Part shown: positions 6,362 to 31,938 of the stretch, piece after piece
How the letters are laid out: the number at the start of each line of letters is the position of its first letter
Numbering within the stretch: position 1 is the first letter of the stretch
Origin: a bacterium
GTDB lineage: Bacteria > Actinomycetota > Acidimicrobiia > Acidimicrobiales > Ilumatobacteraceae
Length of the DNA stretch: 55,967 nucleotides
Assembly: GCA_037133935.1 (NCBI GenBank)
Contig: JBAXNF010000001.1
Coordinates: 1-55,967, forward strand
Direction: 5' to 3'
Position numbers and translations under genes: made by a program
Notes under the pieces: generated by a model
What the model was told of the DNA's origin: nothing
Seen by the model: only the letters and a program-made list of their open reading frames with translations
Databases searched by the model: none

Positions 6362-6386
6362 TGTTCTCCTTGGTCTAGTGGAGAGT

Positions 6387-16850: not shown

Positions 16851-18125
16851 TTAAAGGGTTTTGCTGGCGATGCAGGCGCCCAAGGTCACACCAGAGGTCA
16901 GACCGATTGTGAAGTGGATTCCGCCATACAGGCGCGAGATGCTCGCCTCTTTTGCAGCTTCGTTGAGCGACGCAAAAGTGCGGGGAGTTACTTCAAACTT
17001 TGCACGCGATTCTTGCGTGAGGCCGTAGCCCGGATCGGTAAATTTCCACTCTCCGAAATAGGAAGTTAAAACATCGGCAGCAGTTTTTGAAATGGTCGAA
17101 TGCCCCGATGGGTATTCCGGAAACGCAGGTGTTGGTAAGTACGACGACCACTGGGCGTCGCTACGTTGCAGCACCGTGATGGGTCGTTCCACCATGTATT
17201 TATATTTTTGGCCAAAGTTCACAATGAATGCATCGGATACCGCCATCGACATGTGGGCAACTACACGGATCAGTTTGACCGCGTCGATATTTTTTTCTAA
17301 GCCTGCGGCAAGTGCAATTTCCAACCAGTGCCCCGAAGGAGTGCCTGTGCGACCGCGACTATCGTCCCAGAAGCGAGCAATACTTTTTTGTTCTTCGGTG
17401 AGATTCTTTGCCACAGTAGCGACTTCTTCTGCAGCATCTTGGAAAGGTGACGATGTGTCTCCCGAAGTTGGAGGAACTGGAAGAGAACATTTTTTTGTGT
17501 CGACAAAAAATGATGTGAGTGTTCCCCAGCCTGGGTCAATAGCTGGCTGATATCCAGGTTGTGTAGGAACCCAGATGCCAGGACCCTTCACATCGGGTGC
17601 CATTATTTTTTTTGATTCTTCAAACCCATCGGTGTTCGTTCGTGCAACCACAGCTTCGGCGATGCTGATGCCGTAACTAATTGATTCATATTCAGCAGTG
17701 GCTGACAAGTTGACTGCGGCCATACGCAAAATACGATCGCGAAATTCACCGAATGTTGTACGTGCGGCAGCGACTAAGAAAATATTTCGAGCAACCGATG
17801 TTCCAGCAGCCAATGCAGCAACTACTAGGTCAATGTTTTCTGCACGTGCTGGCAACTCAGGCACACTGCTGAGTTTCTTAAACAACGAGTCATCACTTGG
17901 TGCCGATGCCAAAAACATTGCATAAGCAACGTTTGCATACAAGCGACTTGCTTTGGTTGGTGCCACGCGATCGCGAGCGACACGAACTGTAAGTTCTGTG
18001 AGAAATTCGCCAACCAACGCATTTGATGCGGCATTACTTGCCTTCGGTTGCGTTGAAGCGCTTGCCGCATGAGTTACAACAATTGAAGATAATAACGTGA
18101 GGATAACAATAAGTTTTTTCAGCAT
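16851..18125 (-). CDS. Secreted PAP2-superfamily / vanadium-dependent haloperoxidase-like protein
   Basis: Signal peptide MLKKLIVILTLLSSIVVTHAASA. It has the complete KxxxxxxRP (K307-P315), PSGH (339-342) and SRxxxxxH (397-404) motif set. Its start overlaps the upstream stop (ATGCTGA, 18119-18125). Confidence 0.75.
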   Translation of the reverse strand: MLKKLIVILTLLSSIVVTHAASASTQPKASNAASNALVGEFLTELTVRVARDRVAPTKASRLYANVAYAMFLASAPSDDSLFKKLSSVPELPARAENIDLVVAALAAGTSVARNIFLVAAARTTFGEFRDRILRMAAVNLSATAEYESISYGISIAEAVVARTNTDGFEESKKIMAPDVKGPGIWVPTQPGYQPAIDPGWGTLTSFFVDTKKCSLPVPPTSGDTSSPFQDAAEEVATVAKNLTEEQKSIARFWDDSRGRTGTPSGHWLEIALAAGLEKNIDAVKLIRVVAHMSMAVSDAFIVNFGQKYKYMVERPITVLQRSDAQWSSYLPTPAFPEYPSGHSTISKTAADVLTSYFGEWKFTDPGYGLTQESRAKFEVTPRTFASLNEAAKEASISRLYGGIHFTIGLTSGVTLGACIASKTL

Positions 18126-18631
18126 GACGGTGAAGCTACTTTCCCGTCAGGCAACTCTGTCTTACACAAAAGGGCCTGTTCAAATGAAGGGGCGTTCAAC
18201 GCGCCAGTGAAGATTGCATCGGTCAAGTAAGCCCGGCTGAAATTTGCATCCGCAATATTTGCCTCGCGAAAGTCTGCCCCAGTGAGCAATGCACCCGAAA
18301 AGTTTGCACCTTGCGCATTGGCCGAGGAAAGCGAGATGCGCACCAAAGTAGAACCCGTGAGATCTGCGCCCGTGAGATCGGCGCCCACAAGATTCGCCTG
18401 AGTTAAATCTGCCCCTACAAATGTGGTGTCCGACAAATTGGCATTACGTAGATCAATTCCGACCATTGTCATTCCTGATAAGTCTTGGCCACTGAGATCT
18501 GCACCAATGCACTCTGCTTCATTCTTTAAGGAGCACTGGCTGCCGACCGATGTGGATGACGAAGTACTACTGCCACCACAACCAGACAATGCGGCACAAG
18601 TCGCCAGTAATAACCACCAATATTTTTTCAT
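18119..18631 (-). CDS. Pentapeptide-repeat lipoprotein
   Basis: Lipobox ALSGC-GGSSTSS, then a continuous A(D/N)LxX run (GADLSGQDLSGMTMVGIDLRNANLSDTTFVGADLTQANLVGADLTGADLTG...). ATGA overlap with the upstream gene at 18628-18631. Confidence 0.85.
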   Translation of the reverse strand: MKKYWWLLLATCAALSGCGGSSTSSSTSVGSQCSLKNEAECIGADLSGQDLSGMTMVGIDLRNANLSDTTFVGADLTQANLVGADLTGADLTGSTLVRISLSSANAQGANFSGALLTGADFREANIADANFSRAYLTDAIFTGALNAPSFEQALLCKTELPDGKVASPSC

Positions 18632-20382
18632 TCTGGCTCAATAACATCTATTACTTGTTGCGGCTTGACATTGTTCAGAACCATTTCTTTGCCCGATAAA
18701 GGGAATGTCACTTTTACTTCATAAATATTTTTGGTGAGCTTCCCCAACCCAAAATGTGTCACACGACCATCATGAGTGAGAAATGAACCCGATGTTCCCA
18801 CATGGGCCAACTGTGGTTCTTCACCTTCAACAGACGTAACAGAAACAAGTGCACCCAACCCATCACGATTCGTCGTGACTCCCTGCACTTTGACACCCAG
18901 CCAAGCACCCACCGATGGAGTTTCGTTATGGAGAAATAGTGGCTTGTTCGCATCACGGGTAACAAACATGTCTTGTCGACCATCGTTGTCGGCGTCGAAC
19001 ACCACAACACCTTTTGAAGGTGTATTGATGTCTATGCCAGCTGCAATTGATTTTTCGGTGAATGCTCCGTTGCCGTTATCGACCCAAAAGCGAAATGGGT
19101 CAGAGGCGTAACACGCTGACGGCGGCATCCAAGTAATGTCCATTCCGTTTGCTGAAGCAATTTCTTTTTTTGCAGCATTTGTGGAGTCGAGAAAACTCAC
19201 CCCCCATCCCCAGAATCCGTTACGCACTCCAGCTTTGTCGGTGATGTCACTGAAAACTCTTTTACCGACATATTCGAAAAGTCTGTTTCCAGTCAAGATC
19301 AAATCTGATTCGTCATCACAATCAACTTTCGCACGTATGGAGGTCACCATCATTACTTGCTTCTGAGGATTACCAAGGAAACCGACAGCCAAGCCCATTC
19401 CGTTTTCTTCTTTGCCTAATTCCGCATCCACTGTGCCATTGGTGAAAGTACCGTCGCCGTTATTCCAGTAAAAACGCGTGGTGTTGAAGTCGGATGCAAT
19501 CATCAAATCAAGGTTGCCATCACCGTCAAAATCGGTAAAGCTCGAACTAAATGAGTACACCAGGTCAACTCGTGACTCAAGTTCAACACCTGCTTCTTTC
19601 GTGACATCAACGAAAACACCCGGTTTACCGGAGGCCCCCAGATTTTTAAATAAACGAGAATGAGACGGTATTACATACACCGATACATCGGCTGGTTGCC
19701 ACTCATTGGTGTGCATGTCGATCCAACCATCGTTGTTGTAGTCGCCAAAACTCACACCCATTCCTGAATGAGGGCGACCATTAATCATTGCTACACCGCG
19801 ATCAACTGCTTCTTCTGTGAACTTTCCTGTTCCGTCATTAATGAACATATATAACTGTTTTCCACCAAGTGAGGTAAGTACAACATCTTGATCGCCATCG
19901 TTGTCAATGTCGGCATAGCCAACACCGTTTGTAGATGAGGGCACCTTTTCGAATGCGGATCCCTTTGTGGCATCAACAAACGACACTTGGTCTTTTGTAC
20001 TGGTGTTGAGATACAGCAGTGGCGAGTTATAAATACGTGTCATCACGATGTCATCGAGCCCATCACCATTAACATCAACAGCTGCCGCTCCACCCGAAGA
20101 ACGCTCGGGATCACATTGCCTTGCAACATCTTTCGACACTGCAGGTGGAGTGACCTTAGGGAACTGGGCAACGATGAGCTTGGGGTCAAAAAGGCAATTC
20201 GGTTCCTTGATGCGTTGACCTTGAGCAATGGAAAAGCCAACTTGTTTCGACATCTCTACAAACTTTGGCAAGGCGTCTGGCACTGCACCGGTGCCGCCAC
20301 TACCTCCACACGAAAATGCGACAGATGCTAGCAACAATGTTGCTAGCACCTGACCACATCTTTTAAAGATGAGGGGACTCAT
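18628..20382 (-). CDS. FG-GAP/VCBS-repeat lipoprotein with a C-terminal ASPIC/UnbV-like region (CRTAC1-family-like)
   Basis: Lipobox VAFSC-GGSGG. Repeated Ca-binding-type loops: VDVNGDGLDDIV, DIDNDGDQDVV, DYNNDGWIDM, DFDGDGNLDL, FDADNDGRQDMF. C-terminal NRDGLGALVSV...GSFLTHDGRVTHFGLG. ATGA overlap with the giant gene's stop at 20379-20382. Confidence 0.8.
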   Translation of the reverse strand: MSPLIFKRCGQVLATLLLASVAFSCGGSGGTGAVPDALPKFVEMSKQVGFSIAQGQRIKEPNCLFDPKLIVAQFPKVTPPAVSKDVARQCDPERSSGGAAAVDVNGDGLDDIVMTRIYNSPLLYLNTSTKDQVSFVDATKGSAFEKVPSSTNGVGYADIDNDGDQDVVLTSLGGKQLYMFINDGTGKFTEEAVDRGVAMINGRPHSGMGVSFGDYNNDGWIDMHTNEWQPADVSVYVIPSHSRLFKNLGASGKPGVFVDVTKEAGVELESRVDLVYSFSSSFTDFDGDGNLDLMIASDFNTTRFYWNNGDGTFTNGTVDAELGKEENGMGLAVGFLGNPQKQVMMVTSIRAKVDCDDESDLILTGNRLFEYVGKRVFSDITDKAGVRNGFWGWGVSFLDSTNAAKKEIASANGMDITWMPPSACYASDPFRFWVDNGNGAFTEKSIAAGIDINTPSKGVVVFDADNDGRQDMFVTRDANKPLFLHNETPSVGAWLGVKVQGVTTNRDGLGALVSVTSVEGEEPQLAHVGTSGSFLTHDGRVTHFGLGKLTKNIYEVKVTFPLSGKEMVLNNVKPQQVIDVIEPE

Positions 20383-23300
20383 CGAATATTAAATCCGTAG
20401 CCCCACAGGTTGATCCATACGTTTCCTGGGTTGGTATTGAAGCCCATGCCCGCATTGATTGCGCGGCCCCAACCACCCCAACCACAACGGAAGTAACGGT
20501 CCCAACGGCCACCACCCCACCAGCACTCTGGCCAACTCCAGTCCATCCATGCAGATCCACCGATGTAGATGGAAATATATGGAGCCCAACTGGTGATAGT
20601 GATATATGAAGCGAAGTAAGTACCGAAGCTCAACTGTACGAAACCGGCGTTGATATAAGTACCCCAGCTCCATGGTCCGGCTGAGGCGGTGAACTGGAAT
20701 GAACCATCACCGTTGATGTAGCCGTACATACGGAACCAGACGCCTGCGAAGTTCAGCCACGCATCGATGATGAAGTAACTGTTGCCGCGGTAACGCTGAC
20801 CGTTATACCAGGCAACGTTGCCTACCTTGACCCAACCGCCGGTGCTGACACCTGGGAAGTTTACTCCAACATAAATTGATGTGTCGAAGGTGCCATCGGC
20901 ACCCACCCACATTGCACCGCCACCTCTAATGCCAGCAATGTCGATAGACACATCGGCGTACACACCAGCTTGACCTGGCTCGTTCGAGATCCGGAAGTTT
21001 CCGCGGCCACCGCCAATACCTGCAGCGCGTAGGTCTGCAGAACCAGTCATTGTGAAGCGAGTAGTTGATCCGTTCTTGTAGAAGTTACCGTTGAAACCTA
21101 CGCTTACGGCACCCATAACATTGATGGTGGAGCTCATGGCGAATTGCCATGTGTTGCCATTCTTCGAACCACTTACGCTGACCGCTGCGTTGAACGCAAC
21201 AAGGTTGAGGTTTCCGGATCCAGCGAAGGAGAAGTTGCCAGAGGTATCGAATGATCCACTGACGTAGACCTGCCCACCAACATCACCAGCACCAATTGAC
21301 CAGTTGGCATTGAAGTCGCCATACACAAGATTTTGTGCACGACCAATGACAACGTTTCCTGAACCGGGGAAACCTCCAAGGCTCATGGGAATGTTGGTTG
21401 CAGCGATGCGGAAGTCACCAGCTGCTGCCGCAACGTTTTGACCCGCACGGTTCAGGATGTTGACTCCAGAGCCGGCCTGCCATACGAACTGACCGCTGAC
21501 TTGTGCCGAGAACACGCCACCAACAGATGCTGTCGCCGTAATAGACACTTGGTTACCATTGAGGAAGCCCGATGCCGTGCCCAAGTTGTAGCCAGCCATT
21601 GCGGCAGAGGCACTGAAGTTGATAGTTGGCGTATTTCCCTTTGTATACGCGATGTCAAATTTACCGTTCAAAGTAACGACACCAGCAATGGTGCGTTGCA
21701 GTTGAAGGCTCGCGTTGAGGGACTGCAATTGGTAGTTCGACATTTGCATATTCAATGCAACTGTTGCGTCGGTACCAAGAACATTGAAACTGCCGCCAGC
21801 GACGATATTTGCATATCCCCTCAATGGCTTCAGGTTCAATGTCACTGTTGCATTACGTACTTCCAGGAATGACGGGACAATGACGAGGTTCGCAATAGAA
21901 CCCGTCATGTCGAGGTAAGGCCCGTCGGTGGTGTTAGCACCAGCCTTACCGCTCACCGAAACTTTCGTAGAGCCAATAGTGACGCCACCAGCAAACGAGA
22001 TGTAGTTATCGGTAGGTGAAACTTTCACACCCATCCGAGTTTCGTCAAGTTTCACTGGACCAACGTTGAAGGCTCCAATAGCCATGTCGGCTTCAAGCGA
22101 GAACGGGCTCGTGCCAATTTTCGCATTCACCGTCACGTTGGTGCCGAAAACTGTTCCTACGAAACCAGCTGCAACACCTGGGGCATACACCACGTTTCCA
22201 ATGGTGCAACCAAATGGCGCAATAGTGATGTTCATGTAAGTAGAGGTCAGAGCACCACCAGCAATGCTTGCAACCTTTGCAGAACCTGCAGCAATGGTTG
22301 TCTTATCTGCTTGCAACGTGCCGGCTTGCAACGAGAAGCACGGCTGAGTGATATCGATGTTTGCAGCCAAACGTACGGCTACTCCCGCTTCCATACCCAA
22401 TGGTGATCTCCAACTAGCTGGCAAGATTGCTGTTGCAGCAATACCCAAACTTGGCAGTGGCATTGGCGCGGTCAGAGTAATACCCATTTGAATTGCGGCT
22501 TCACTAAGCGTGAGGTCGTTTACTCCAAATGCGTTCTTCCATATGAATGGCCCGCCTGTTGCCTTATCTTTTCCAAGACTCAAGCTGAGGCTGATGCGGG
22601 TTGGCGCAACTGTTCCGCGAATTTCTAGTGGAACAGGAGTTTCATTAGACGCACCAGTCAACATTTCTGTTTGACCAATCAAGCTCATTGAAGGCGAAGG
22701 AGATCCACTTACTTCAAAACCAAGAGCTGTGAAGCGCATGGAGGATCCACCCGACTTGTACATGTACCAGTTGTCTGGAGTTGGCAACATGATTTGAATG
22801 GTTGGCAACTTGCCACCCGCTAGGTCTTTGAGCGGAATAGTGATGGGCACATTGGTCAAGTTCGGTTGCTTCAACATCTCGCGCAACCAACTTGGAACAT
22901 TGAAACTAGCAATGAGTACTGGTGTTGCCTTAACGATATTGAGCTTCCCTAAATCTTCAGCTCCCGCCAAGACAACGCCCGTTGCATCGTACGACGACAA
23001 TGCGAAGGAAGCATTCGACAACGTCATCCCCGGTACGGGAGTCCAATCTTTCATTCCTGCCGTAATGAGAACACCCTTCGAGCTAAACGTAGCGCCCATG
23101 CTCAAGGTAGTTCCCAGCAAATTGGAACTGCCCGACACCCCAGCTGTTACACCACCGGCTTTCGTATAAGCAAGCGAGAAACCTGGCTTAGTAATGGTGA
23201 CACCAGACGCAATGTTGATATCTGCAGTGAAGGTTGCGCTCAGGGTTGCTTCGCCCTTGTTGAAACTGCCCTTCACTTCAGTTGGCCCCGTGAATCCGTT

Positions 23301-26300
23301 TCCAAGATCAACAAAGAGTTTCCCTTGCGCTCCAAAACCAATGTCACAAGGTGTGCCAATGTTGCAGGTCGCGTTAATGAGAACACCTGGTTCAGTGATT
23401 TTCAGGCCAGGGAACGGCACATAGTCAGTGCTGGACTTAAAGCCAATACTCATTGTTTTTACATTGTCCTTGCGGACCACGGTTCCCGTCACACCCTTCA
23501 ACGGAATGGAGAAGCCACTAAATGGCGTCCATGATGCCGTTGAGTTTTCAGGTGTTGCAACCACAAATTCGTAATTCGTTGCACTTGTGTAGTTAAAGGT
23601 AAATGGCATCAGTAGTGCACCAGTATCGGTAGCTACCGACAGTTGCCCACTACCCTTCACCGGAGCAGTCGTTGTACCACCCATGCGGATATCTAAACGA
23701 TCAATCATGACGCCCTTGATTACCTCAACAGGCGAGATGACTTTTGCAACAAGGGCATACTCCCAAGGCTTTGAACTTGCAGGCCGTGAAATGGATCCGT
23801 CTATCTCAACTTTGTCTGTCTTAAATGCTGCCGTCATGCTCAATGCACCCGTGGCAAAGGTCCATGAACCAGAAATAGACACGGGTCCAAATGTTGCAGT
23901 GCCCGTTACTTCTTTGATCATCTCTGGCATCGGAAGTGAGAAGCTCAGACGTGGCACGTTGAGTCCAAGATTAATTGAAGGCAAGTTGAGGTTCGGCAAA
24001 CTTGGCGACCAGTTAATGGAAGGGATGCTGATTGATGGAGCCTTCAACATCCAAGCAAACTTGCCAATATCGAAGTCGTAGTCAAAGCCTGGCAATTTGA
24101 ACTTCGGAAATACACATTCCATCAAAACACCAGCACCGAAGGTCACTTCGCAAGTTGTTTTTGTACCAAACAGTTCTACTGTTCCCGACAATTTCGCCGT
24201 GACAGAAGGTTGAGCTGTCTTTGTTGGTGTTGTAGCTGCAGATGTTCCGGTTGCAGGTGCTTTCACTGCAGGAGGAACCGTGAGCACGATTGTTGGTGAT
24301 GTCAACTTGACATCTGCCGAGAAGACCATGTCTGAGAACTTCGCAGTGAAGACGAAAACACCGGCGCTGTCGAGGTTTGCTTCAACTGCAATACTGCTCA
24401 ATGAGTCGATACCAATATCGAACCCGAGAGTTCCTTTCACGTTGAATGTCGTTATGCACTTGGCACCTGTTGCACAATTAAATGCAGCGTTCGCAGTCAC
24501 TTTTTGTATGGTGATTCCAGATACTGGCTTCCAAACAACTGCCGACGACATATCCATCAGCAAACTGGTTCCCGTTGCATTACGAGTGAAAGAACCATTG
24601 ATTTCGCCAAGAACGAGCGGGTCACCACCACCCACTTCAAACGATGAACTGGTTGCCCCAACCGACAGCGTCACCGCATAGTCAGTTGAAGATTTGATAG
24701 CAAAAGTTCCCTTGACCGTGAGCACGGTTCCACCTGGAACGGTGATGCCTACAGCTCCGCTTCCACTAAGTGATGCCTTGCCACCGGGAACTGTGTTTCC
24801 AAAAGTGAACGCGAAGTCTGAGAGTTGAACAACACTATTCAGCTCAATTGGACGCTTTACTTTTCCAGTGAGATTGTACAAATAGCTCTTTGAAAGATCG
24901 GTCTTATCGCCACCAGCTTTATTACTGATGGTTCCGCTCAATTCAAAGACAGGGTCAGAGAACAACGCAGCAAGAGAGAACTCGCCACTTGAGAAGTTCA
25001 CTTCACCTTGAACAGCCAAGTCACTCACTTCTCCACTAGCGCCCGTGAACTCTTTCAACGCAGATGGCATCGCTATTGCAACTATTAAGCGAGGCACTTT
25101 GGCCGAAAGTGGCACCGACTTGAAGGTAGGCAACGAAGGCACCTTTGGCGTGAAGCTAGAGAGATCACGTAATGACCACACAAGTTGACCTGCTTTTAAG
25201 ACAGGCCCATCGGCACCAAAAGCTGCCAAATCTTTTACATCAGCGCTGAGCAACACGTTTTCTTTACTAAACGCTGCAGAGGCACTTACTTTTGTACCAA
25301 ATACGTTCATCGAGCCCGTCATGGTGATGGACGTTGTTTGGTCTGCGGCACCCACCTTTGTGGCCTCGATGGCAAGTGAAGCTTCCGAGAGTTCTAAGCC
25401 TGCTGCTACTTCAATTGAAGCAACTTTTGCTGTGAAAGAAGCCGACTTGGCAGCCGTGTCGAAACTACCTTCAAGGCTTCCCGAACCGACTGTAGAACCT
25501 AAGGTAATTTCTGCCGTTGAACTGAGTTTCATTGCCAACGCACACGCTGCATCGGCAGCGCATTTGGCAGTGACCTCAATTGATGGCGACTTGATTTCAA
25601 GACCTGTCATTGGAGTTGAGTTACCTCCTACAACCTTGATGGCAATATCGCGTGCACCATTTACATTTGCATAAGAACCCGATGCGCTCTTCAAAGGAAT
25701 GACCACATCTTTTGCTGCAGTCCATGAACTGTTAGCTGTAGTTGCCTTCACTGTCAAAGAATGATTCTTTGTATCGGTGTACGACAAGTCGGCGGTGAGT
25801 TCAAGTGCTGAAGGTGCCGTACCAATGGTGACGGTTCCCGAACCAGTAACAATTCCTTCTTCGCTACGTGATGCTGTTAATCCATTTAATACAACGCCAG
25901 TTGTCAGAGTTACTGGGCCTTCTAGCGAACCAGAGAGAGAAACCTTTGCGGCAGTTGTCGGAGAAGTCTTTGTGACCTTGCCAGCAAAGTTCACTACTGT
26001 GCCGAAGAGGTCGACGGCATCGGTCATTGAACCATCAAGAGTGAAGGTTCCATTTGAAGCGATGGCACCATAGACACGAGCCGCTGGTGTTTTACCGTTT
26101 GCTGTAGTACCTGTTGCATTTGCATCGAGCGAAACTGATTTCACACCAGCAGCATCGACGCTAAAGCGCAGTGCTGCACTTGAGGTGTAGCCCGAAGGCA
26201 ACTTCAAGAACGGCATTGCAGCAGCAACAACTTCACCTTCAAATGCGCCAACTGAAGCACCAGCACCTGTGAATGGAATGAATAGACCAACTGCATCGGT

Positions 26301-29300
26301 TGCCGCAATAGCGAACTGTGGTGAACCCCAGTCGGCTGGGCCGGTGAATCGTGCAGTACGGATGGTGAGGCCATAACCCGATACCGAACCTGACGCATCA
26401 GAAACGGTGAGGTAGTTGCCAAGTGAGAAACCGGCACCCGAGAAGCTCACCTTTGAGCTTGCGAGACAAGTGCTTGAAGCCACAGTGAACTTCGTGAGGT
26501 CAAGTCCACCAATGCCAATGGCATCAATAATTGACTGCACACTGCTCAAAGTTTTGTTTGAAGCAGCTTCAACGAAGTTGCACAACGCAGCAGGAGCGCC
26601 ACCTGGCTTCAATTCAAGAGCAACTTCAGCAGTGGCTTTCGCACCAGTGCCGTCGGTTACTACAACTTGCAATACAGCATCGCCGAGTGCGCCAGTAGCT
26701 GCAACAGTTACTGCTGCGGCTGCGGCGTTGTTCAACGTAAGAGCCGTACCTGAAACTTGCGCCCAGGCGTAGCTCAATGTTCCGCTACCTGAACCAGCAG
26801 CTGTGAGTGTGAATGCTTGTGAGGTATCAACTACAACTGGGCCATCGATGCCAGTAATTGTTGCCGATACCACTGGGGCTCCACCTGAACCAATAGTGAC
26901 CGTAATGAAGTCTGTTGACTTCACACCACGTGAGTCGGTTGCTTCAACACGTAATGAAACGGTGACGTTCGCGGCGGGTGCAGTGAAGCTCAAGGTTGCA
27001 GCGTTTGTAGTTGCCGAAGCAATGACCGATGGTGTAGGGCCTGAAGCCTGTGACCATGCGTAAGTGATTGCACCAACACCTGTAGCTGAAGCCGTGAGTG
27101 AAACTGCTGCACTTTGTGCAACGGTGACTGACTTCGCGCCAAAGACGTTGCCGTTTACTGTTACACCAGTAGCGGTGAGTGGGCTATACGTTGCATCGCC
27201 AGTTCCAGTTGTTGGAGCAGTTGCACGAATAACTCCACGTGAAGAAACACTCTGCTGTGGAACACGGCGCAAAACGGATGAACCAGCACCGCTTGAAGTT
27301 TTGCCGGTTGGGCCTTCAACGGTTGGCAGAGGAATAACTACGACAGAAGCACGAGCTGTTGATGAAGAACCAGCTTCAGTTGCCTTCACTTCAAACAAGA
27401 GTGTGGTGTCTGCAGTTACAACAGGAGCCGAGAACGTTGCAGATGGGCCATTAGAAGCCTTGTTGTCTGCCCATTTCACAGCTGGAGTCACAGACTTACA
27501 TTCTCCACCAGAAGCTTTTACATCGGCTTCAGTAGTGCAGAGTTGCTTCCACACGTAAGCAGCTCCATCGCCATTGCCTTCAGTTGTAAGTAGAACGGTA
27601 GAAGCAACACGATTGCCAATTGCATCAACAATTTGATCAACTACAGAATCTGGGCCTTTAACGGTGAACGCCAGCGCTGGGCGCAGATCTACCGAAAGGT
27701 TTGAACCGCGGCCGGCAGCAATATTGCGTGAGGTGCCATAAAGTGAAGCAGCCTGCAAGTTGAGAGTCTTTGAAGACTTACTTGTTGATTCGTAGCTCAA
27801 GCTCAATGCTGGCGTTTCTGCACCAGCCTTCAATGCTGGAGTGCGCGAGCAAATGGTGAAACCAGAAGCAAGCGCCGTACCCAATCGAGCGCACTTCCAT
27901 GACTCACCCTTGACACCAGTGATGCGGCCATCTTTGATACCAGGCACAACAACAAATTGAGCTTTTGCATCGGTGTCACCACTGTTGCGCAGACTCAAAG
28001 TTGCCACTGCGGAACCACCCGGACGAGGGCCAGCTGGAGCCAAGAACGATGGAACCAAATCGGTTGTATCTTCGGAAATTGCAACGGTCATGCCAAAACG
28101 AGCTATTGGCGCTGCAGGAATGCCGAGCATCGTTACATACACAGGCCATTCAGGTTTTCCTACTTTTGCAGAATTAGCCATTTTGACTGTGAGGTTCAAC
28201 ACTGGAGTTGACTTGTCGGGCGCAATTGCAGAAGCGAGTTTAATTTCGCAACGCACAGCGGGGCCAGCCTTCTTTGTTGCCACAGTTGTTACAGGAGCAA
28301 CCGAAGATGCTGTTTCAGCCTTTGCTGCATCGAGCGGTGAAGCGATTTGAGGAATATTTCCGGTTCCTGTTACACAGACCCACTTCCCTGCAGCCGATGT
28401 ATTAATTTTCTGGCTGTCGAGTGATGCCGAGTAACCAGCCGATTTGCCAAAAGCTGGTCCGCTGAAAATTGCAGTGTCGTCGACAAACTGCTCAAACCGT
28501 ACGATCTCACCAGCAGCTAGCGCCTTGCTTCCCAAGTTTTTTGTACTGAATGAATAATTCTGGCTTTGCCCAATACGGATCTTTGTTGCAGATCCATCGG
28601 ATACAACTTTCAATGCACCCTTTTCATCGGAACGGCTCAGTTCAACACCTGGCATCGGAGCCGCTTGAGGCTGAATGACCAAGGTGTGTGCGACGCGGTT
28701 TGCATCTTTGTACTTTTCAGCTTCATTATCTGCAGAAATTGCAGCAATGACTTGTGCCGTACCTGATTCAGTGTCTTCGGTTGCACCAATGGTAAACCCA
28801 ACCGTTTCCGGTGTTTCAGATTCAATTTCTGGCTTCACACAATCTTGCGCAGTTGCGCCTTCACCAGCAGATTCTTCTGGGGTAGTTGAGGTACAGGTCC
28901 AGCCTTCAGCATCGGATGCCAAGCCTTTGAACACAAGACCTTTGCGCATGCTGAGTTTGATGTGGGCATTTTCTGCCGGGCCGTATACCGAACGCACTAA
29001 CGCATCGACTACGACCGAGCCTGGAGGAGAGATACTGCTTTCCTCATCGCGCGGAGCAAGACGAATGGTTACGTCTGGCTCTGGAACTTTACGAACGTCA
29101 ATTGACATTGTCTGGTTTGCTTCAATTGGTGTTGCATCAAGCGCAGTAGTTGAGTTTGCAGAAAGAACCCAGCTTTGTGGCTTTTCCGCAATTGGTGCGG
29201 CTTTTCCAACACGAGCATCAAAGATAATTGGATCGGTATAAGTACCGGGCTTGATATCGGCACCAGTACGGGTACACGACTTGGGTGCAGTTTCGCTATC

Positions 29301-30419
29301 GCACTTCCAGCCTTCGCCACTAATTTTTACCTTTGTGAGGGCCAAGAAAGGGGGAACAACATTTGAGAATTTAATAGAGCCTGATTGTGTTTCAGTACCT
29401 GTTGGCAAGAAACGCAATTCCATATGGAATGGACCACCTGGGTAAACAGGTCCTTTGATTTTTGATTCAATGAAAACGCCTGCAATTCCCTGGCCATTCA
29501 GACCCAATGCCGACTTCACGCGGCGAGTTGAACCAGCCTGAACACCAGAATCTCGTTCAAGACCATTCAACTGCACGACTGCTTCGTTGTTTTTGGTATT
29601 GATGTCGCTTGCTGTATTGGCAACAGCTGTGAGGTGAGTTACCTGCCTAACCACAGCGTTAAATGCAGCAAGATCTCCACCAGTTGATGCGGCTTTAATT
29701 TTGTCGAGCAAGTCTGCAGGCGGAACAGGAATTACTGCATTACTTGCAATATCAAAACGAAGGTCGGCTTGCGCTGTTGCGCCACTTGCCAACAATGCAT
29801 TCACAATTCCCTTGTCTGATTTTTCAACTAGTACGCACTGTAAGCCTTTGCAATCCCAACCGCGGTCGCCAACAACAGAGTCGGCGCCGAGTACAGGACT
29901 TGCATCGAGCAATTTGACAAATGTCGGCATTTCCTGCAATGTGAAAGATACAGGTGACTTTTCACCTGCAACTGCATTACCAATGTTTGTGACATAGACA
30001 ATTCCCATATACACAAAACCAGGGATTGCTGGCCCAACAAGGTTTGCGGCAGCCGAAAGGTCGGCACCACTCTTGTTCTCACCGGCTTCGCCAGCAGGGA
30101 ATTCTTTTGTATCGGGTTTTGCCTGCTCGGTAGGTGGCTGGTCAATACCATTTTTATCTACTGGACCGTCATAGAGCGGCAAAACACTGGTGTCGGTGAG
30201 TCCAGGAACTGAAGTAGTTGTAGTTCCAGCATCAGCAGCAACAGTTGTTGTTGTTTCATCCGCCGCCGTAGTTGCCGTTGTTGCTGGCGTCATTGACGTG
30301 GTGGTCGAAGAGTCGATAGGTGCGCTGGCGTTAGCCGGCATTACTGAGGTTGCTCCGACTGCAAAAACAGTGAGGAGAACTGTTGCATTTCGCGTAATTA
30401 CTCGGGCGTTGATTTTCAT
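20379..30419 (-). CDS. Giant secreted protein (~3,346 aa): Thr-rich linker, DUF11-like and PKD-like modules, then ~2,000 aa of unassigned beta-rich sequence
   Basis: Uninterrupted 10-kb ORF. The ATG at 30417-30419 forms an ATGA overlap with the upstream stop and has AGGA 8 nt upstream; the track start at 30428 is the alternative. SPase-I type signal (LLTVFAVGATSVMPANA-SAP). No lipobox, no LPXTG, no C-terminal TM segment. Confidence 0.9.
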   Translation of the reverse strand: MKINARVITRNATVLLTVFAVGATSVMPANASAPIDSSTTTSMTPATTATTAADETTTTVAADAGTTTTSVPGLTDTSVLPLYDGPVDKNGIDQPPTEQAKPDTKEFPAGEAGENKSGADLSAAANLVGPAIPGFVYMGIVYVTNIGNAVAGEKSPVSFTLQEMPTFVKLLDASPVLGADSVVGDRGWDCKGLQCVLVEKSDKGIVNALLASGATAQADLRFDIASNAVIPVPPADLLDKIKAASTGGDLAAFNAVVRQVTHLTAVANTASDINTKNNEAVVQLNGLERDSGVQAGSTRRVKSALGLNGQGIAGVFIESKIKGPVYPGGPFHMELRFLPTGTETQSGSIKFSNVVPPFLALTKVKISGEGWKCDSETAPKSCTRTGADIKPGTYTDPIIFDARVGKAAPIAEKPQSWVLSANSTTALDATPIEANQTMSIDVRKVPEPDVTIRLAPRDEESSISPPGSVVVDALVRSVYGPAENAHIKLSMRKGLVFKGLASDAEGWTCTSTTPEESAGEGATAQDCVKPEIESETPETVGFTIGATEDTESGTAQVIAAISADNEAEKYKDANRVAHTLVIQPQAAPMPGVELSRSDEKGALKVVSDGSATKIRIGQSQNYSFSTKNLGSKALAAGEIVRFEQFVDDTAIFSGPAFGKSAGYSASLDSQKINTSAAGKWVCVTGTGNIPQIASPLDAAKAETASSVAPVTTVATKKAGPAVRCEIKLASAIAPDKSTPVLNLTVKMANSAKVGKPEWPVYVTMLGIPAAPIARFGMTVAISEDTTDLVPSFLAPAGPRPGGSAVATLSLRNSGDTDAKAQFVVVPGIKDGRITGVKGESWKCARLGTALASGFTICSRTPALKAGAETPALSLSYESTSKSSKTLNLQAASLYGTSRNIAAGRGSNLSVDLRPALAFTVKGPDSVVDQIVDAIGNRVASTVLLTTEGNGDGAAYVWKQLCTTEADVKASGGECKSVTPAVKWADNKASNGPSATFSAPVVTADTTLLFEVKATEAGSSSTARASVVVIPLPTVEGPTGKTSSGAGSSVLRRVPQQSVSSRGVIRATAPTTGTGDATYSPLTATGVTVNGNVFGAKSVTVAQSAAVSLTASATGVGAITYAWSQASGPTPSVIASATTNAATLSFTAPAANVTVSLRVEATDSRGVKSTDFITVTIGSGGAPVVSATITGIDGPVVVDTSQAFTLTAAGSGSGTLSYAWAQVSGTALTLNNAAAAAVTVAATGALGDAVLQVVVTDGTGAKATAEVALELKPGGAPAALCNFVEAASNKTLSSVQSIIDAIGIGGLDLTKFTVASSTCLASSKVSFSGAGFSLGNYLTVSDASGSVSGYGLTIRTARFTGPADWGSPQFAIAATDAVGLFIPFTGAGASVGAFEGEVVAAAMPFLKLPSGYTSSAALRFSVDAAGVKSVSLDANATGTTANGKTPAARVYGAIASNGTFTLDGSMTDAVDLFGTVVNFAGKVTKTSPTTAAKVSLSGSLEGPVTLTTGVVLNGLTASRSEEGIVTGSGTVTIGTAPSALELTADLSYTDTKNHSLTVKATTANSSWTAAKDVVIPLKSASGSYANVNGARDIAIKVVGGNSTPMTGLEIKSPSIEVTAKCAADAACALAMKLSSTAEITLGSTVGSGSLEGSFDTAAKSASFTAKVASIEVAAGLELSEASLAIEATKVGAADQTTSITMTGSMNVFGTKVSASAAFSKENVLLSADVKDLAAFGADGPVLKAGQLVWSLRDLSSFTPKVPSLPTFKSVPLSAKVPRLIVAIAMPSALKEFTGASGEVSDLAVQGEVNFSSGEFSLAALFSDPVFELSGTISNKAGGDKTDLSKSYLYNLTGKVKRPIELNSVVQLSDFAFTFGNTVPGGKASLSGSGAVGITVPGGTVLTVKGTFAIKSSTDYAVTLSVGATSSSFEVGGGDPLVLGEINGSFTRNATGTSLLMDMSSAVVWKPVSGITIQKVTANAAFNCATGAKCITTFNVKGTLGFDIGIDSLSSIAVEANLDSAGVFVFTAKFSDMVFSADVKLTSPTIVLTVPPAVKAPATGTSAATTPTKTAQPSVTAKLSGTVELFGTKTTCEVTFGAGVLMECVFPKFKLPGFDYDFDIGKFAWMLKAPSISIPSINWSPSLPNLNLPSINLGLNVPRLSFSLPMPEMIKEVTGTATFGPVSISGSWTFATGALSMTAAFKTDKVEIDGSISRPASSKPWEYALVAKVISPVEVIKGVMIDRLDIRMGGTTTAPVKGSGQLSVATDTGALLMPFTFNYTSATNYEFVVATPENSTASWTPFSGFSIPLKGVTGTVVRKDNVKTMSIGFKSSTDYVPFPGLKITEPGVLINATCNIGTPCDIGFGAQGKLFVDLGNGFTGPTEVKGSFNKGEATLSATFTADINIASGVTITKPGFSLAYTKAGGVTAGVSGSSNLLGTTLSMGATFSSKGVLITAGMKDWTPVPGMTLSNASFALSSYDATGVVLAGAEDLGKLNIVKATPVLIASFNVPSWLREMLKQPNLTNVPITIPLKDLAGGKLPTIQIMLPTPDNWYMYKSGGSSMRFTALGFEVSGSPSPSMSLIGQTEMLTGASNETPVPLEIRGTVAPTRISLSLSLGKDKATGGPFIWKNAFGVNDLTLSEAAIQMGITLTAPMPLPSLGIAATAILPASWRSPLGMEAGVAVRLAANIDITQPCFSLQAGTLQADKTTIAAGSAKVASIAGGALTSTYMNITIAPFGCTIGNVVYAPGVAAGFVGTVFGTNVTVNAKIGTSPFSLEADMAIGAFNVGPVKLDETRMGVKVSPTDNYISFAGGVTIGSTKVSVSGKAGANTTDGPYLDMTGSIANLVIVPSFLEVRNATVTLNLKPLRGYANIVAGGSFNVLGTDATVALNMQMSNYQLQSLNASLQLQRTIAGVVTLNGKFDIAYTKGNTPTINFSASAAMAGYNLGTASGFLNGNQVSITATASVGGVFSAQVSGQFVWQAGSGVNILNRAGQNVAAAAGDFRIAATNIPMSLGGFPGSGNVVIGRAQNLVYGDFNANWSIGAGDVGGQVYVSGSFDTSGNFSFAGSGNLNLVAFNAAVSVSGSKNGNTWQFAMSSTINVMGAVSVGFNGNFYKNGSTTRFTMTGSADLRAAGIGGGRGNFRISNEPGQAGVYADVSIDIAGIRGGGAMWVGADGTFDTSIYVGVNFPGVSTGGWVKVGNVAWYNGQRYRGNSYFIIDAWLNFAGVWFRMYGYINGDGSFQFTASAGPWSWGTYINAGFVQLSFGTYFASYITITSWAPYISIYIGGSAWMDWSWPECWWGGGRWDRYFRCGWGGWGRAINAGMGFNTNPGNVWINLWGYGFNIR
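20382..20846 (-). other. Trp/Gly/Tyr-rich C-terminal module of the giant protein
   Basis: The last ~155 aa contain 17 Trp by my count (…GPWSWGTYINAGF…SAWMDWSWPECWWGGGRWDRYFRCGWGGWGRAINAGMGFNTNPGNVWINLWGYGFNIR). The rest of the protein is Trp-poor. Confidence 0.6.
22179..26561 (-). repeat. Cryptic ~350-380-aa super-repeats (3-4 copies) in the unassigned core of the giant protein
   Basis: Recurring landmarks at near-constant spacing. (V/L)FGTK at aa 1710 and 2087, with LLGTT at 2438. (K/N)VPRLxxxxxMPxxxKExTG at aa 1777 and 2157. CX5C at aa 1623-1629 (CAADAAC), 1985-1991 (CATGAKC) and 2355-2361 (CNIGTPC). Numbering is from the track ORF. Confidence 0.6.
26604..27668 (-). repeat. Three PKD/Ig-like modules
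   Basis: Recurrent Y-x-W-x-Q...G......(F/T)-x-AP......L-x-V-x-(A/V)-T-D pattern: AAYVWKQL...ATFSAP...LLFEVKATE; ITYAWSQASGPTP...LSFTAPAANVTVSLRVEATDSRG; LSYAWAQVSGTAL...AVLQVVVTDGTG. Confidence 0.55.
27669..30056 (-). repeat. Five ~160-aa DUF11-like (conserved repeat domain) modules
   Basis: Each module ends in a (G/S/K)W-x-C...C signature: GWDCKGLQC, GWKCDSETAPKSC, GWTCTSTT...DC, KWVCVTG...RC, SWKCARLG...IC. Each signature is preceded by a VTNxGN / LRNSG-type strand. Confidence 0.6.
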
Positions 30420-31471
30420 GATGCACATCCTGTTGAAGCGAAACCGGTAAGAGTTCGGGTAGTTCCTGAAGTATTAAAAACGGGGCGATACGCAGGTGTT
30501 GCTACAGCAACACGGTCAAGTGCCGCACGGGCCCTAACGAGAGCTGCTGTATCTGCATTTGCACCCGTGAGTGCAGTTGCAATTCCATCGATGAGTTGGC
30601 TTGGCCCGCCATTACGCAAGGCCGAGATGCAGTCGCTTGTTGACCACAGTGTGTTTTTCCACTTCAGTTCAGCAACTTTCAACGAGACGTTCTTGCAAGT
30701 AGAGGCGGTGGTGCCACTGCACGACAACATAAGGTCGCGGATGGCATTTCCTGTTGCAGCAGAATCGTTGGTCTGATCACCAAGAAGGAACTCGACTCCC
30801 CAACCATTTCCAAGGAAGGCTCCCACTTGTGGAGCAGTTGGGTCGAGGCCACGAATAGACTTAATTCCTGAACCCTTCAATGTTTGCGAAGTGACTTCTT
30901 TAATGATGCTCTTTGCCTTAGTGGTAACGAACGCACAGTTATCGCACACCAATGAACCAGACGACGTGGTGCTGATAGTCCAACGCAAAGTCATTGGAGT
31001 AGCCGTGCCTACCCACTCGGCTTTTGTAACAGTGAGCACACCAGCTGAGTCGGTGTTCCATGTTGCACTTACTGCGCGAGCAGCGTTGCTGGTGAGTGAT
31101 GCCTCTGCAGGAAGAGCAGGACGCGGCGCACCTAGTGGGTTGTCGCTCGCTAAATACGTTGCTTGATAGTTGCCCGGATCAGCAACTACTGCAGCGGCAG
31201 GAACAGGAACAAGCGTTGTTGCGGGCGCTGCAGTTGTTGCAGTTGTTGCTGGTGCCGCAGAAGTCGTTGTAGCAGCCGCAACTGTTGTTGGTGTCTCGCC
31301 AGCAGAACCTTTCGATGGAAGCGTTCCTGAAGCAAGAGTGGTTGTCACCAATGCCGCATTCTTTACGCGAGTCGTATCGGGCCCAGATGAATCTGATTTG
31401 GAACTTCCACACGAGGCAACTGCTACCAGAGCAATTGCCAAGATGGCACATTTAGTAACACGAGATCTCAT
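30416..31471 (-). CDS. Lipoprotein of unknown function with a Thr/Ala-rich linker and a Cys-containing globular part (351 aa)
   Basis: The ATG at 31469-31471 forms an ATGA overlap with the upstream stop and has GGAG 7 nt upstream. It gives MRSRVTKCAILAIALVAVASC-GSSKSDSS. I recognised no domain. Confidence 0.75.
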   Translation of the reverse strand: MRSRVTKCAILAIALVAVASCGSSKSDSSGPDTTRVKNAALVTTTLASGTLPSKGSAGETPTTVAAATTTSAAPATTATTAAPATTLVPVPAAAVVADPGNYQATYLASDNPLGAPRPALPAEASLTSNAARAVSATWNTDSAGVLTVTKAEWVGTATPMTLRWTISTTSSGSLVCDNCAFVTTKAKSIIKEVTSQTLKGSGIKSIRGLDPTAPQVGAFLGNGWGVEFLLGDQTNDSAATGNAIRDLMLSCSGTTASTCKNVSLKVAELKWKNTLWSTSDCISALRNGGPSQLIDGIATALTGANADTAALVRARAALDRVAVATPAYRPVFNTSGTTRTLTGFASTGCAS

Positions 31472-31938
31472 TTGGTTGCTCCACATTTTTCAGAAACGAA
31501 TTTGTTAATAGATTCAGTTGCAGCATCAATGTCGGGTGTTGCATATTTCGCTACTACTGCATCGAACGAGTCAAGAGATGGGTCGCTCTTGAGCGAGTCG
31601 GCCATGGCTTGTGCAGCTGCAGCAACTTTGTCGGCAGCAGATTTAATTTCAGTTGGTGCTTTGCTTGCGGTATCGCTCAAAGCTGCAGCAAGTGCATTGA
31701 TCTTTGTGGTGATTGCAGCAGCATCATCGGTTGACTCAATTTGAGGAAGCTTCGAATTGTTTGCATCTGCAGAGCTGCAGAACTCTTCATACGACACTTC
31801 ACCAGTTGCCGTGGAATTTTCCGAAGCGACCGACGTGTCTTGAGTCGACGAGTCTTGAGACGACGAGTCGCTTCCACCACAAGCCCCTAAGACAAGCAAC
31901 GCCAATAAAGGCAAACTTCGTTTGATAGTGCTTCGCAT
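31468..31938 (-). CDS. Small, probably helical lipoprotein of unknown function (156 aa); first gene of the surface operon
   Basis: MRSTIKRSLPLLALLVLGAC-GGSDSSSQDSS lipobox. AGGGGA lies 7 nt upstream of the ATG. The Ala/Lys/Asp-rich sequence with two distal Cys matches no domain I recognise. Confidence 0.7.
   Translation of the reverse strand: MRSTIKRSLPLLALLVLGACGGSDSSSQDSSTQDTSVASENSTATGEVSYEEFCSSADANNSKLPQIESTDDAAAITTKINALAAALSDTASKAPTEIKSAADKVAAAAQAMADSLKSDPSLDSFDAVVAKYATPDIDAATESINKFVSEKCGATK

Follow-up and report, generated by a model that had tools for sequence, protein, structure and literature searches.

A giant secreted protein of freshwater Acidimicrobiales with three diverged copies of an undescribed all-β module, in a block exchanged between lineages

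Among described proteins, the giant adhesins built of immunoglobulin-like (Ig) repeats, such as those of the LapA, SiiE and Ebh type with Big_2, BIg, PKD or DUF11 units, are Sec-secreted, thousands of residues long and composed of tandem repeats that vary in copy number. Among genes, mosaic surface-protein genes combine a hypervariable middle with conserved ends, as in the central domain of flagellin and the variable regions of pilins and porins. In this study, a stretch of 55,967 nucleotides from a member of the Ilumatobacteraceae (GenBank assembly GCA_037133935.1, contig JBAXNF010000001.1, positions 1 to 55,967; hereafter the window) was analysed, focusing on a gene that encodes a giant secreted protein of the same general kind as these adhesins. 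In this protein, however, the Ig and PKD likeness is confined to the N-terminal third (PKD at aa 1106–1279; weak DUF11 matches in relatives), the repeating unit is not an Ig unit of ~100 residues but a two-lobed module of ~360 residues that has no match in Pfam, NCBIfam or the PDB, and signals for Ca binding, RTX or sortase are absent. As in the mosaic surface-protein genes, the termini of the giant gene are conserved and its centre is deeply divergent and subject to recombinational exchange between lineages, with changes at predicted exposed positions, although the gene encodes a protein of another family and fold and the cassette spans ~3–4 kb. The gene and the parts of its product on which the following argument depends are listed below, with residues counted from the start of the open reading frame (ORF) at window position 30428 and not from the called start at 30419.

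20379–30419, minus strand: gene for the giant secreted protein (ORF list, translation and gene caller on the source contig)
26109–26582, minus strand: cap domain preceding the modules, aa 1283–1440, with Cys pair 1283/1321 (identity to orthologues)
25020–26108, minus strand: module R1, aa 1441–1803, with CX5C at aa 1623–1629, window 25542–25562 (self-BLASTP, hidden Markov model, alignment, Smith–Waterman)
23883–25019, minus strand: module R2, aa 1804–2182, with CX5C at aa 1985–1991, window 24456–24476 (self-BLASTP, hidden Markov model, alignment, AlphaFold)
22773–23882, minus strand: module R3, aa 2183–2552, with CX5C at aa 2355–2361, window 23346–23366 (self-BLASTP, hidden Markov model, alignment)
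20382–22772, minus strand: conserved C-terminal domain, aa 2553–3349 (family alignment, AlphaFold, composition)

The ORF at 20379–30428 comprises 3,349 codons, and the called product, which begins with MKINAR at 30419, comprises 3,346 residues. The protein contains three tandem, old and diverged copies of an all-β module of ~350–370 residues, and these represent a genuine triplication. When tiles of the protein were compared with the masked protein itself by BLASTP, off-diagonal matches were obtained at offsets of 354–379 and 727–733 residues, with E values down to 2.5e-20 and 23–29% identity over 200–300 residues, and these matches are colinear, at offsets of about 362, 370 and 728 residues. 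With boundaries at aa 1441, 1804, 2183 and 2552, the three units share 25.5–28.4% identity over 326–340 paired columns. The Smith–Waterman scores between the units are 205–251, compared with 50–53 ± 9 for shuffled sequences (z = 18–23) and 62–92 for reversed sequences. The initial annotation, which was made by a model from the sequence and its translations, had described cryptic super-repeats of about 360 residues with low mutual identity, and both the non-random periodicity (BLASTP E to 2.5e-20, z = 18–23) and the low identity (25–28%) are borne out by these comparisons. The landmarks that it named were also recovered, all within one residue of the positions given when numbered from 30428: the cysteine motifs CAADAAC (aa 1623–1629), CATGAKC (aa 1985–1991) and CNIGTPC (aa 2355–2361), with spacings of exactly 362 and 370 residues, an FGTK-type motif (VFGTK at aa 1709, LFGTK at aa 2086 and LLGTT at aa 2437), KVPRL at aa 1777 and NVPRL at aa 2157, followed by KEFTG at aa 1792 and KEVTG at aa 2172. 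The three cysteine motifs, starting at aa 1623, 1985 and 2355, are the sole CX5C pairs across the 3,349 codons, and the Cys pair and six other columns are invariant in eight units from three proteins. The extent of the repeats had been overestimated at ~1,450 residues: the repeat block covers 1,112 residues in three copies (aa 1441–2552, window 22773–26108), whereas aa 1283–1440 form the separate cap and aa 2553–2750 are the start of the C-terminal domain.

It may be argued that such repeats are a compositional artefact of β-rich low-complexity sequence, since a hairpin pattern inflates profile–profile scores; hhalign aligned the module with its own reversed sequence at a probability of 95.5% (E = 1.6e-8). 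The Smith–Waterman scores are decisive here, because they far exceed those of both the reversed and the shuffled controls. Moreover, the alignment of the units is colinear over 330–340 columns with the Cys pair and the motifs in register, and the relatives of the protein differ by whole modules (one, two or three). The artefact explanation is thus refuted by self-BLASTP, unit alignment, whole-module copy variation and the Smith–Waterman controls, and we give it practically no credence. The same control bears on how far the repeats extend. The initial annotation had left open a triplication or a quadruplication, and only the triplication stands: a hidden Markov model of the three units found nothing significant outside aa 1441–2552, and although hhalign paired the module with the C-terminal domain at 96% probability (E = 4.8e-9), the reversed control scores about equally, so that a relationship between the two, with the C-terminal domain as a degenerate fourth copy, is unproven. 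Since hairpin-meander profiles score high against their reversed copies, a reversed-sequence control is needed whenever homology of β-meanders is proposed from profile–profile comparison. A possible sub-repeat of ~72–90 columns inside the module (86% probability, weak) fails this control as well. The cap is 84–97% identical to the orthologues nearest to the window protein and ~60% identical to those of more distant clades, and it shows no detectable kinship to the module or the C-terminal domain (hhalign probability versus the module <5%).

The age of the triplication can be judged from its distribution. A genome scan with one genome per GTDB species, for which the close alignment A5 was used (the broad alignments A3 and A4 are without a conserved 7–10-mer), recovered 13 loci with the giant gene at 49–80% identity, from metagenome-assembled genomes (MAGs) of lakes and rivers assigned to Acidimicrobiales, Ilumatobacteraceae or unclassified Actinomycetota. 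Wherever a recovered locus spans the block, R1, R2 and R3 each have a one-to-one orthologue there (13 species-level genomes, 3 truncated), and the triplication therefore predates this close clade. In the wider family the situation is different. An exhaustive HMMER search of 1.84 billion proteins with a profile of eight module copies recovered 112 cluster representatives at E ≤ 1e-3 (64 at E ≤ 1e-10 and 26 at E ≤ 1e-30), whereas a word-indexed homologue search returned only three relatives. Most of these relatives are 2,000–3,600 residues long, and the full-length members all begin with a signal peptide. Most of the proteins have one module, while two are found in P0002, P0005, P0008 and P0065 and three in P0001, P0004, P0006 and the window protein, and relatives with one, two or three copies differ by whole modules. 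Since a single module is the most frequent arrangement, the triplication represents a lineage-specific expansion. Among the window copies, R3 shows the greatest likeness to the module of one-module relatives, as does the last module in multi-module proteins generally, and these similarities suggest that additional copies were probably gained N-terminally. Half-modules also occur alone, with seven N-lobe copies in P0012 and six C-lobe copies in P0010, and because the lobes are repeated separately in these proteins, the module is considered to consist of two lobes. The Cys pair lies at the lobe junction; both Cys are present in 69 of the 117 modules that cover the site, with a spacing of 3–9 and a mode of 5–6. 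The conserved CX5C loop proposed initially is therefore correct as to the Cys pair and incorrect as to a fixed spacing, which is CX3-9C across the family.

The module or modules are followed by the C-terminal domain in 90 of 115 family proteins. Alignment A4 shows the conserved motifs of this domain to be GWxNAFGxxGLT, PCF...APxGC (Cys 2697/2741) and GDF; its last 160 residues are rich in Trp, Tyr, Phe and Gly, and the protein ends in ...GFNIR. As judged from the alignments and the family search, these proteins constitute a new family, to which the window protein belongs, defined by a two-lobed module of ~345 residues with Cys-X(3–9)-Cys at the lobe junction, followed by a domain of ~800 residues with GWxNAFG and PCF...APxGC. 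A Pfam search of the whole protein at E ≤ 1 gave only the K319L-like PKD domains (aa 1106–1279), an NCBIfam search of the whole protein gave only those Ig-like stretches, and the module and C-terminal domain profiles gave no meaningful match among PDB sequences. The impression of the initial annotation that the repeats belong to no described family is consequently upheld for the module in Pfam, NCBIfam and PDB sequence searches, and no description of the module family, the locus or the protein was found in literature searches. Pfam searches of five members returned weak DUF11 and PKD matches only, in their N-terminal parts, and the named members are all annotated as 'hypothetical' or 'PKD/Ig-like domain-containing' proteins. 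The named members and genome matches are almost all from Acidimicrobiales and mostly from MAGs, with a cultured-strain member in Ilumatobacter coccineus YM16-304 (YM304_04720; WP_041297919.1/BAN00786.1), which makes this undescribed family, without Pfam, NCBIfam or PDB relatives, experimentally approachable. One family member carries an Acidobacteria MAG label.

The second main property of the giant gene is that its centre and its flanks have different nearest relatives. The segment concerned is as follows.

21730–25727, minus strand: recombination cassette, aa ~1570–2900 (nucleotide identity profile and protein identity matrices)

The closest relative of the window is the locus L003, with gatB 98% identical. 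The protein identity to L003 is 92% in the N-terminal Ig part, 97% in the PKD domains and cap and 94% in the C-terminal domain, but only 49% at aa 1650–2500, which is less than the ~60% that separates the deepest orthologue clades in this region. In contrast, the identity to P0004 is 96% at aa 1650–2500 and 66, 84 and 86%, respectively, in the same three flanking parts. At the nucleotide level, the identity to L003 is 74–97% over aa 1–1600, 39–73% over aa ~1600–2550 (window ~22780–25630) and 77–94% from aa 2551 to the end, whereas the identity to L018, which encodes P0004, reaches 90–99% only over aa ~1570–2900. The two nucleotide profiles are thus reciprocal, with mosaic breakpoints near aa 1600, 2550 and 2900. 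The rate of synonymous substitution (dS) is ~1.8 in the cassette compared with 0.34–0.61 in the flanks, which indicates an old allele brought in by recombination rather than merely fast evolution. Independent support for the cassette is provided by two data sets of other studies, the metagenome X8 and the river metatranscriptome X6, in which only window ~21720–25730 is represented at an identity of at least 95% and the contigs of which diverge at the same position, 25727, as a shared loose end. As shown by these profiles, homologous recombination has moved the module block from lineage to lineage as a cassette of ~3–4 kb. In our view this is the most informative property of the locus, and it was not visible to the initial annotation from the sequence alone.

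Two variable zones were also noted beyond the cassette. One comprises aa ~1–450, that is, the signal peptide, the linker and the first Ig domains (window 29080–30326, minus strand), with 33–57% nucleotide identity to L018. The other is the aromatic-rich last ~250 residues (window 20382–21130, minus strand), with 68% protein identity to L004 and L005, compared with ~90% for the rest of the C-terminal domain.

R2 was modelled by AlphaFold2 with the eight-unit alignment, and the C-terminal domain was modelled with 17 sequences. The R2 model (pLDDT 80.5; predicted TM-score, pTM, 0.70) has 56% strand in 26 β-strands, in agreement with the β-rich character assigned initially, and a single short helix, located C-terminally at the MPxxxKEVTG motif. 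Cys182 of the model ends the strand 169–183 and Cys188 lies in the loop preceding the strand 191–200, and the two would make a disulfide-stapled hairpin. R2 has an additional Cys pair, 2093/2105, besides the CX5C pair. The model of the C-terminal domain has a pLDDT of 84.8 and 73% strand (aa 2553–3349), in ~55 strands. In both models the strands are antiparallel, of 10–16 residues, and are joined mostly by two-residue turns. The expectation that a long β-sheet or β-solenoid continues towards the C-terminus is therefore right as to β-richness and wrong as to a solenoid, the prediction being an antiparallel hairpin meander. One face of the strands is composed of V/I/A/F/L and the other of the polar residues S/N/G/T/Y (also K); the two faces differ in hydropathy by 3.06 in the C-terminal domain (1.42 ± 0.15 when shuffled within strands) and 2.64 in R2 (1.61 ± 0.25 when shuffled). 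The modules and the C-terminal domain are thus predicted to form long amphipathic antiparallel β-meander sheets, the apolar face of which, if the models are correct, must be buried in some manner. Confident predictions of hundreds of residues of unbroken amphipathic hairpin meander outside a membrane context are rare. When the two alleles of R2 were compared, the polar-face positions were 35% identical, the hydrophobic-face positions 58% and the loops 44%; since the polar face is the most changed and the apolar face the most kept, the fold seems to be retained while the predicted exposed face changes.

An insertion found only in R2, rich in Pro, Thr and Ala (PPAVKAPATGTSAATTPTKTAQPS; window 24140–24210, minus strand, aa ~2054–2077), was modelled with a pLDDT of ~52 and is probably flexible or glycosylated, given this low confidence.

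Structural relatives of these models were sought with Foldseek. For the R2 model, neither the PDB nor BFVD yielded a match at E ≤ 1e-3. The best matches of the C-terminal domain were the β-belt of ApoB100 (9e9r, E = 2.4e-6, probability 1.0) and LptD (4q35 and 5iv9, E ~1e-5), with SlpA, ushers and VDAC/Tom40 next in the list. None of these matches exceeds a TM-score of 0.27 or has a root-mean-square deviation (rmsd) below 20 Å, and owing to the low TM-scores they are regarded as analogues of the local hairpin meander and not of the fold. No TamB/AsmA, VPS13, LptA-type, RHS/Tc/teneurin, β-helix or adhesin fold is present among the 50 matches listed per model, and the initial suggestion to look for β-helix, TamB/AsmA-like and adhesin folds accordingly yielded none among the matches listed for either model. 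A parallel β-helix or β-solenoid of the FhaB or pertactin type was rejected, because the models show antiparallel strands of 10–16 residues and not coils of 18–25 residues and there is no Pfam or listed Foldseek match. RHS/YD-repeat shells as in TcB/TcC and teneurin were rejected as well, with no RHS_repeat in Pfam or NCBIfam and no Tc or teneurin chain among the Foldseek matches listed.

The belt of ApoB100 (9e9r, 9ea7 and 9bde), a member of the large lipid transfer protein (LLTP) superfamily, is, like the C-terminal domain, a very long ribbon of amphipathic antiparallel strands with tight turns, and the C-terminal domain shows the amphipathic antiparallel β ribbon by which ApoB/LLTP belts are recognized. 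The two have no sequence relationship (TM-score 0.25, identity 10%), and ApoB100 has a vitellogenin-type N-terminal domain that is absent here, where no Vitellogenin_N or other LLTP match was found in Pfam; the giant protein is bacterial and secreted. The AsmA-like/TamB proteins (DUF490) and the bridge-like lipid transfer proteins are likewise giant, β-rich and repetitive with a hydrophobic surface, but no AsmA, AsmA_2 or DUF490 match was obtained in Pfam. Moreover, AsmA-like/TamB proteins, which have a β-taco fold with a hydrophobic groove, are anchored in the inner membrane of a diderm cell and span its periplasm, whereas in the giant protein the only hydrophobic segment is the cleavable signal peptide. 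Acidimicrobiales are actinobacteria and monoderm, that is, without an outer membrane. LptD, the FimD/PapC ushers, VDAC/Tom40, SprA and Deinococcus SlpA, which fill most of the Foldseek lists, share with the models an up-and-down antiparallel meander with an apolar face. Outer-membrane barrels differ in that the TM-scores are 0.1–0.27, no sign of a closed barrel is seen here and the host is monoderm by taxonomy; they end in an aromatic β-signal residue, whereas the giant protein ends in ...GFNIR.

From these likenesses it could be proposed that the protein is a belt or bridge for lipid or another hydrophobic cargo, in which the apolar sheet face binds lipid, in the way that the ApoB100 belt encircles LDL or that a hydrophobic groove is lined by Lpt/AsmA-type proteins, and added modules lengthen the belt or conduit. 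The ApoB100 and LptD matches at the top of the list, the strong amphipathicity of the strands with their V/I/A/F/L face and a PAP2-family (lipid-phosphatase-like) gene in the conserved gene cluster would all fit such a role. We nevertheless consider it quite unlikely, because the ApoB100 and LptD matches (TM-scores 0.14–0.25, rmsd >30 Å) reflect a generic hairpin meander and not a fold, no AsmA, TamB, VPS13 or LptA-type match occurs in Pfam or among the Foldseek matches listed, and the giant protein, without a membrane anchor, belongs to an Acidimicrobiales host that by taxonomy has no outer membrane to bridge to; it would also be surprising if a cargo groove were the region that varies most and recombines, with its changes on the polar face. 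A related and bolder reading, which we hold to be a long shot, would have aa 1283 to the C-terminus (~2,000 residues) form one continuous amphipathic β-belt, a bacterial counterpart of the ApoB100 belt, that covers or encloses a hydrophobic phase on the surface of a Gram-positive-type cell. This phase would be lipid, a captured particle or a hydrophobic layer of the envelope; the length of the belt would depend on the number of modules, and its polar face would undergo antigenic exchange between lineages. If true, it would represent a previously unknown kind of cell-envelope architecture.

The N-terminal part of the protein and its genomic surroundings bear on where it is located. The remaining parts are as follows.

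30327–30419, minus strand: Sec-type signal peptide (MKINARVITRNATVLLTVFAVGATSVMPANA/SAP; read from the sequence)
27429–30326, minus strand: Thr/Ala-rich linker (aa 35–130), then about six Ig-like domains (aa 131–1000; composition and Cys pairs)
26583–27428, minus strand: two PKD-like (K319L-like) Ig domains (Pfam PF22352, E = 9.6e-14, two stretches)

Each Ig-like domain has a close Cys pair (193/198, 376/385, 512/530, 685/727, 846/860 and 964/977) and a W-x-C motif, from which a count of about six is inferred, and relatives match DUF11/CLIPPER weakly in this region. The PKD-like domains pair with one another in internal BLASTP (aa 1106–1185 with aa 1203–1279). All 26 Cys residues of the mature protein fall into 13 neighbouring pairs, 5–44 residues apart and approximately one for each predicted domain, a distribution suggestive of a single disulfide in each. 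No hydrophobic segment besides the signal peptide and no transmembrane segment was found anywhere in the giant protein, and together with the 13 close Cys pairs this fits an exported protein. The adjacent genes at 16851–20382 and 30416–31938, on the same (minus) strand, encode four lipobox proteins and one further secreted protein: lipoproteins of 156 and 356 residues, an FG-GAP/ASPIC lipoprotein of 584 residues, a pentapeptide-repeat lipoprotein of 170 residues and a secreted PAP2/vanadium-haloperoxidase-like protein of 424 residues. Start and stop codons overlap at some junctions of the cluster; the 3' end of the giant gene overlaps the start of the FG-GAP gene (window 20379–20382), and its called start at 30419 overlaps the stop of the upstream lipoprotein gene by 4 nt in the gene caller table. 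The predicted extracellular location of the giant protein is therefore based on the signal peptide, the lack of a transmembrane segment, the paired Cys residues and the lipobox-bearing or secreted neighbours. The gene order, gatB, 156-residue lipoprotein, 356-residue lipoprotein, giant gene, FG-GAP/ASPIC lipoprotein, pentapeptide lipoprotein, PAP2 protein and second giant gene, is the same in all recovered loci whose length allows it to be seen (13 species genomes). The small upstream ORF of the Ilumatobacter coccineus-type locus (L017) has no similarity to the lipoproteins of the window.

This constancy of the locus is one difficulty for the idea of a secreted antagonist, resembling a pore-former or a polymorphic toxin, in which the modules would bind a receptor and the C-terminal β domain would insert into a target membrane. 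The giant size and secretion of the protein, its variable middle and its conserved amphipathic β C-terminus with an aromatic-rich end would suit such an antagonist, the C-terminal domain is placed nearest to membrane β-barrels by Foldseek, and the neighbouring FG-GAP protein gives a weak TcdB_toxin_midN match (E = 0.004, below the cut-off). However, no toxin, RHS/YD, immunity or secretion-system domain occurs in the giant protein or its neighbours, the locus is fixed and syntenic in the core genome beside gatCAB in 13 species and is not an island, the variable part of polymorphic toxins is the C-terminal tip and not the middle, and the barrel TM-scores are ≤0.27. An antagonist is accordingly judged to be most improbable.

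Expression was assessed in four riverine metatranscriptome assemblies, in which contigs of at least 85% identity cover the whole giant gene with a word depth of ~7–56, compared with ~1–11 for the adjacent gatB/gatA; this shows that the giant gene is transcribed in situ. A depth above that of neighbouring housekeeping genes would fit a self-assembling surface layer (S-layer) or sheath-like layer, in which copies would tile the surface via the conserved domains and the modules would be the variable outer face, although assembled-contig depth is no measure of abundance. Such a layer would also be consistent with a secreted protein that has no anchor motif, is rich in β-strand and S/T/N/G and is variable in its central part, and with the weak Foldseek matches to Deinococcus SlpA/SDBC complexes (8agd, 7zgx and 8ae1; E 6e-4 to 2.4e-3). 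The SlpA TM-scores are around 0.1, however, and 3,346 residues are far above the typical size of an S-layer protein. To our knowledge, no lattice has been reported for Ilumatobacter, which also counts against this explanation. We regard an S-layer-like role as unlikely.

The role that we favour, with a probability of roughly 0.55, is that of an exposed, variable cell-surface structure that is built from the undescribed module and of which the module block recombines between lineages. The giant protein would be located in or on the envelope of a Gram-positive-type cell, probably with the co-transcribed lipoproteins as its partners. The modules may be the outward-facing, length-setting part, acting as a shield, spacer or adhesin, and recognition of their exposed face by phages, grazers or variable ligands may be the reason for its diversification, while the cap and the C-terminal domain would perform the constant work of folding, assembly or attachment. 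The exchange of a ~3–4 kb cassette in a core, syntenic gene makes the protein a probable interface with phages, grazers or substrates. Several points weigh against this assignment. No LPXTG, lipobox, SLH, LysM or WxL match was found in the giant protein by the Pfam and NCBIfam scans, by which it might be anchored to the wall or membrane. The FG-GAP, pentapeptide and PAP2 neighbours are not kept around distant family members, so that the proposed complex is clade-specific at best. The ratio of non-synonymous to synonymous substitution (dN/dS) is about 0.2–0.26 in the cassette and about 0.05–0.13 in the flanks; the cassette value is higher than that of the flanks, yet it is not >1 and its dS is saturated. 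The pTM of the C-terminal domain model is 0.46. Contig depth reflects expression only poorly, and the metatranscriptomes may contain carried-over DNA. Finally, the L003-type allele was not found in assemblies of samples that hold the window allele, although assemblies cannot prove absence. The Ilumatobacteraceae (acIV lineage) are abundant freshwater bacterioplankton whose cell surface is almost unstudied, and the cassette provides a marker for strain-level population dynamics in lakes.

Some further observations concern the recovered loci and the second giant gene. The loci L009, L013 and L014 are labelled 'uncultured Bifidobacterium sp.' yet carry an Acidimicrobiales-type locus, with full synteny and an 80% identical gatB in L009; these labels are probably wrong. 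In L007:5-2998, from a LacPavin MAG, the 3' end of a second paralogue lies directly upstream of the two lipoprotein genes, at the place where other loci have gatB; the fragment comprises the C-terminal domain and, before it, the end of the last module, with 53–54% identity. The second giant secreted protein (window 6387–16799, minus strand; 3,470 residues) contains Big_2 repeats, PA14/GLEYA, two RCC1-type propeller regions and Lcl_C domains. Its N-terminal ~700 residues are 52–91% identical in the loci of most relatives and 40% identical in L014, while its C-terminal part is represented across loci by short, ~35–57% identical pieces only. The end of its gene is overlapped by a 749-residue ORF (window 4613–6862, minus strand), which probably starts at an internal Met (MKQRRNFKRT...LLSAC/GGG, with a lipobox). 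By eye only, the N-terminal domain of this ORF (ATDGFSFANWGG...GGRCEGMAV) resembles that of the second giant protein (ATDGWSFPNFPS...SGHCEGLVAL).

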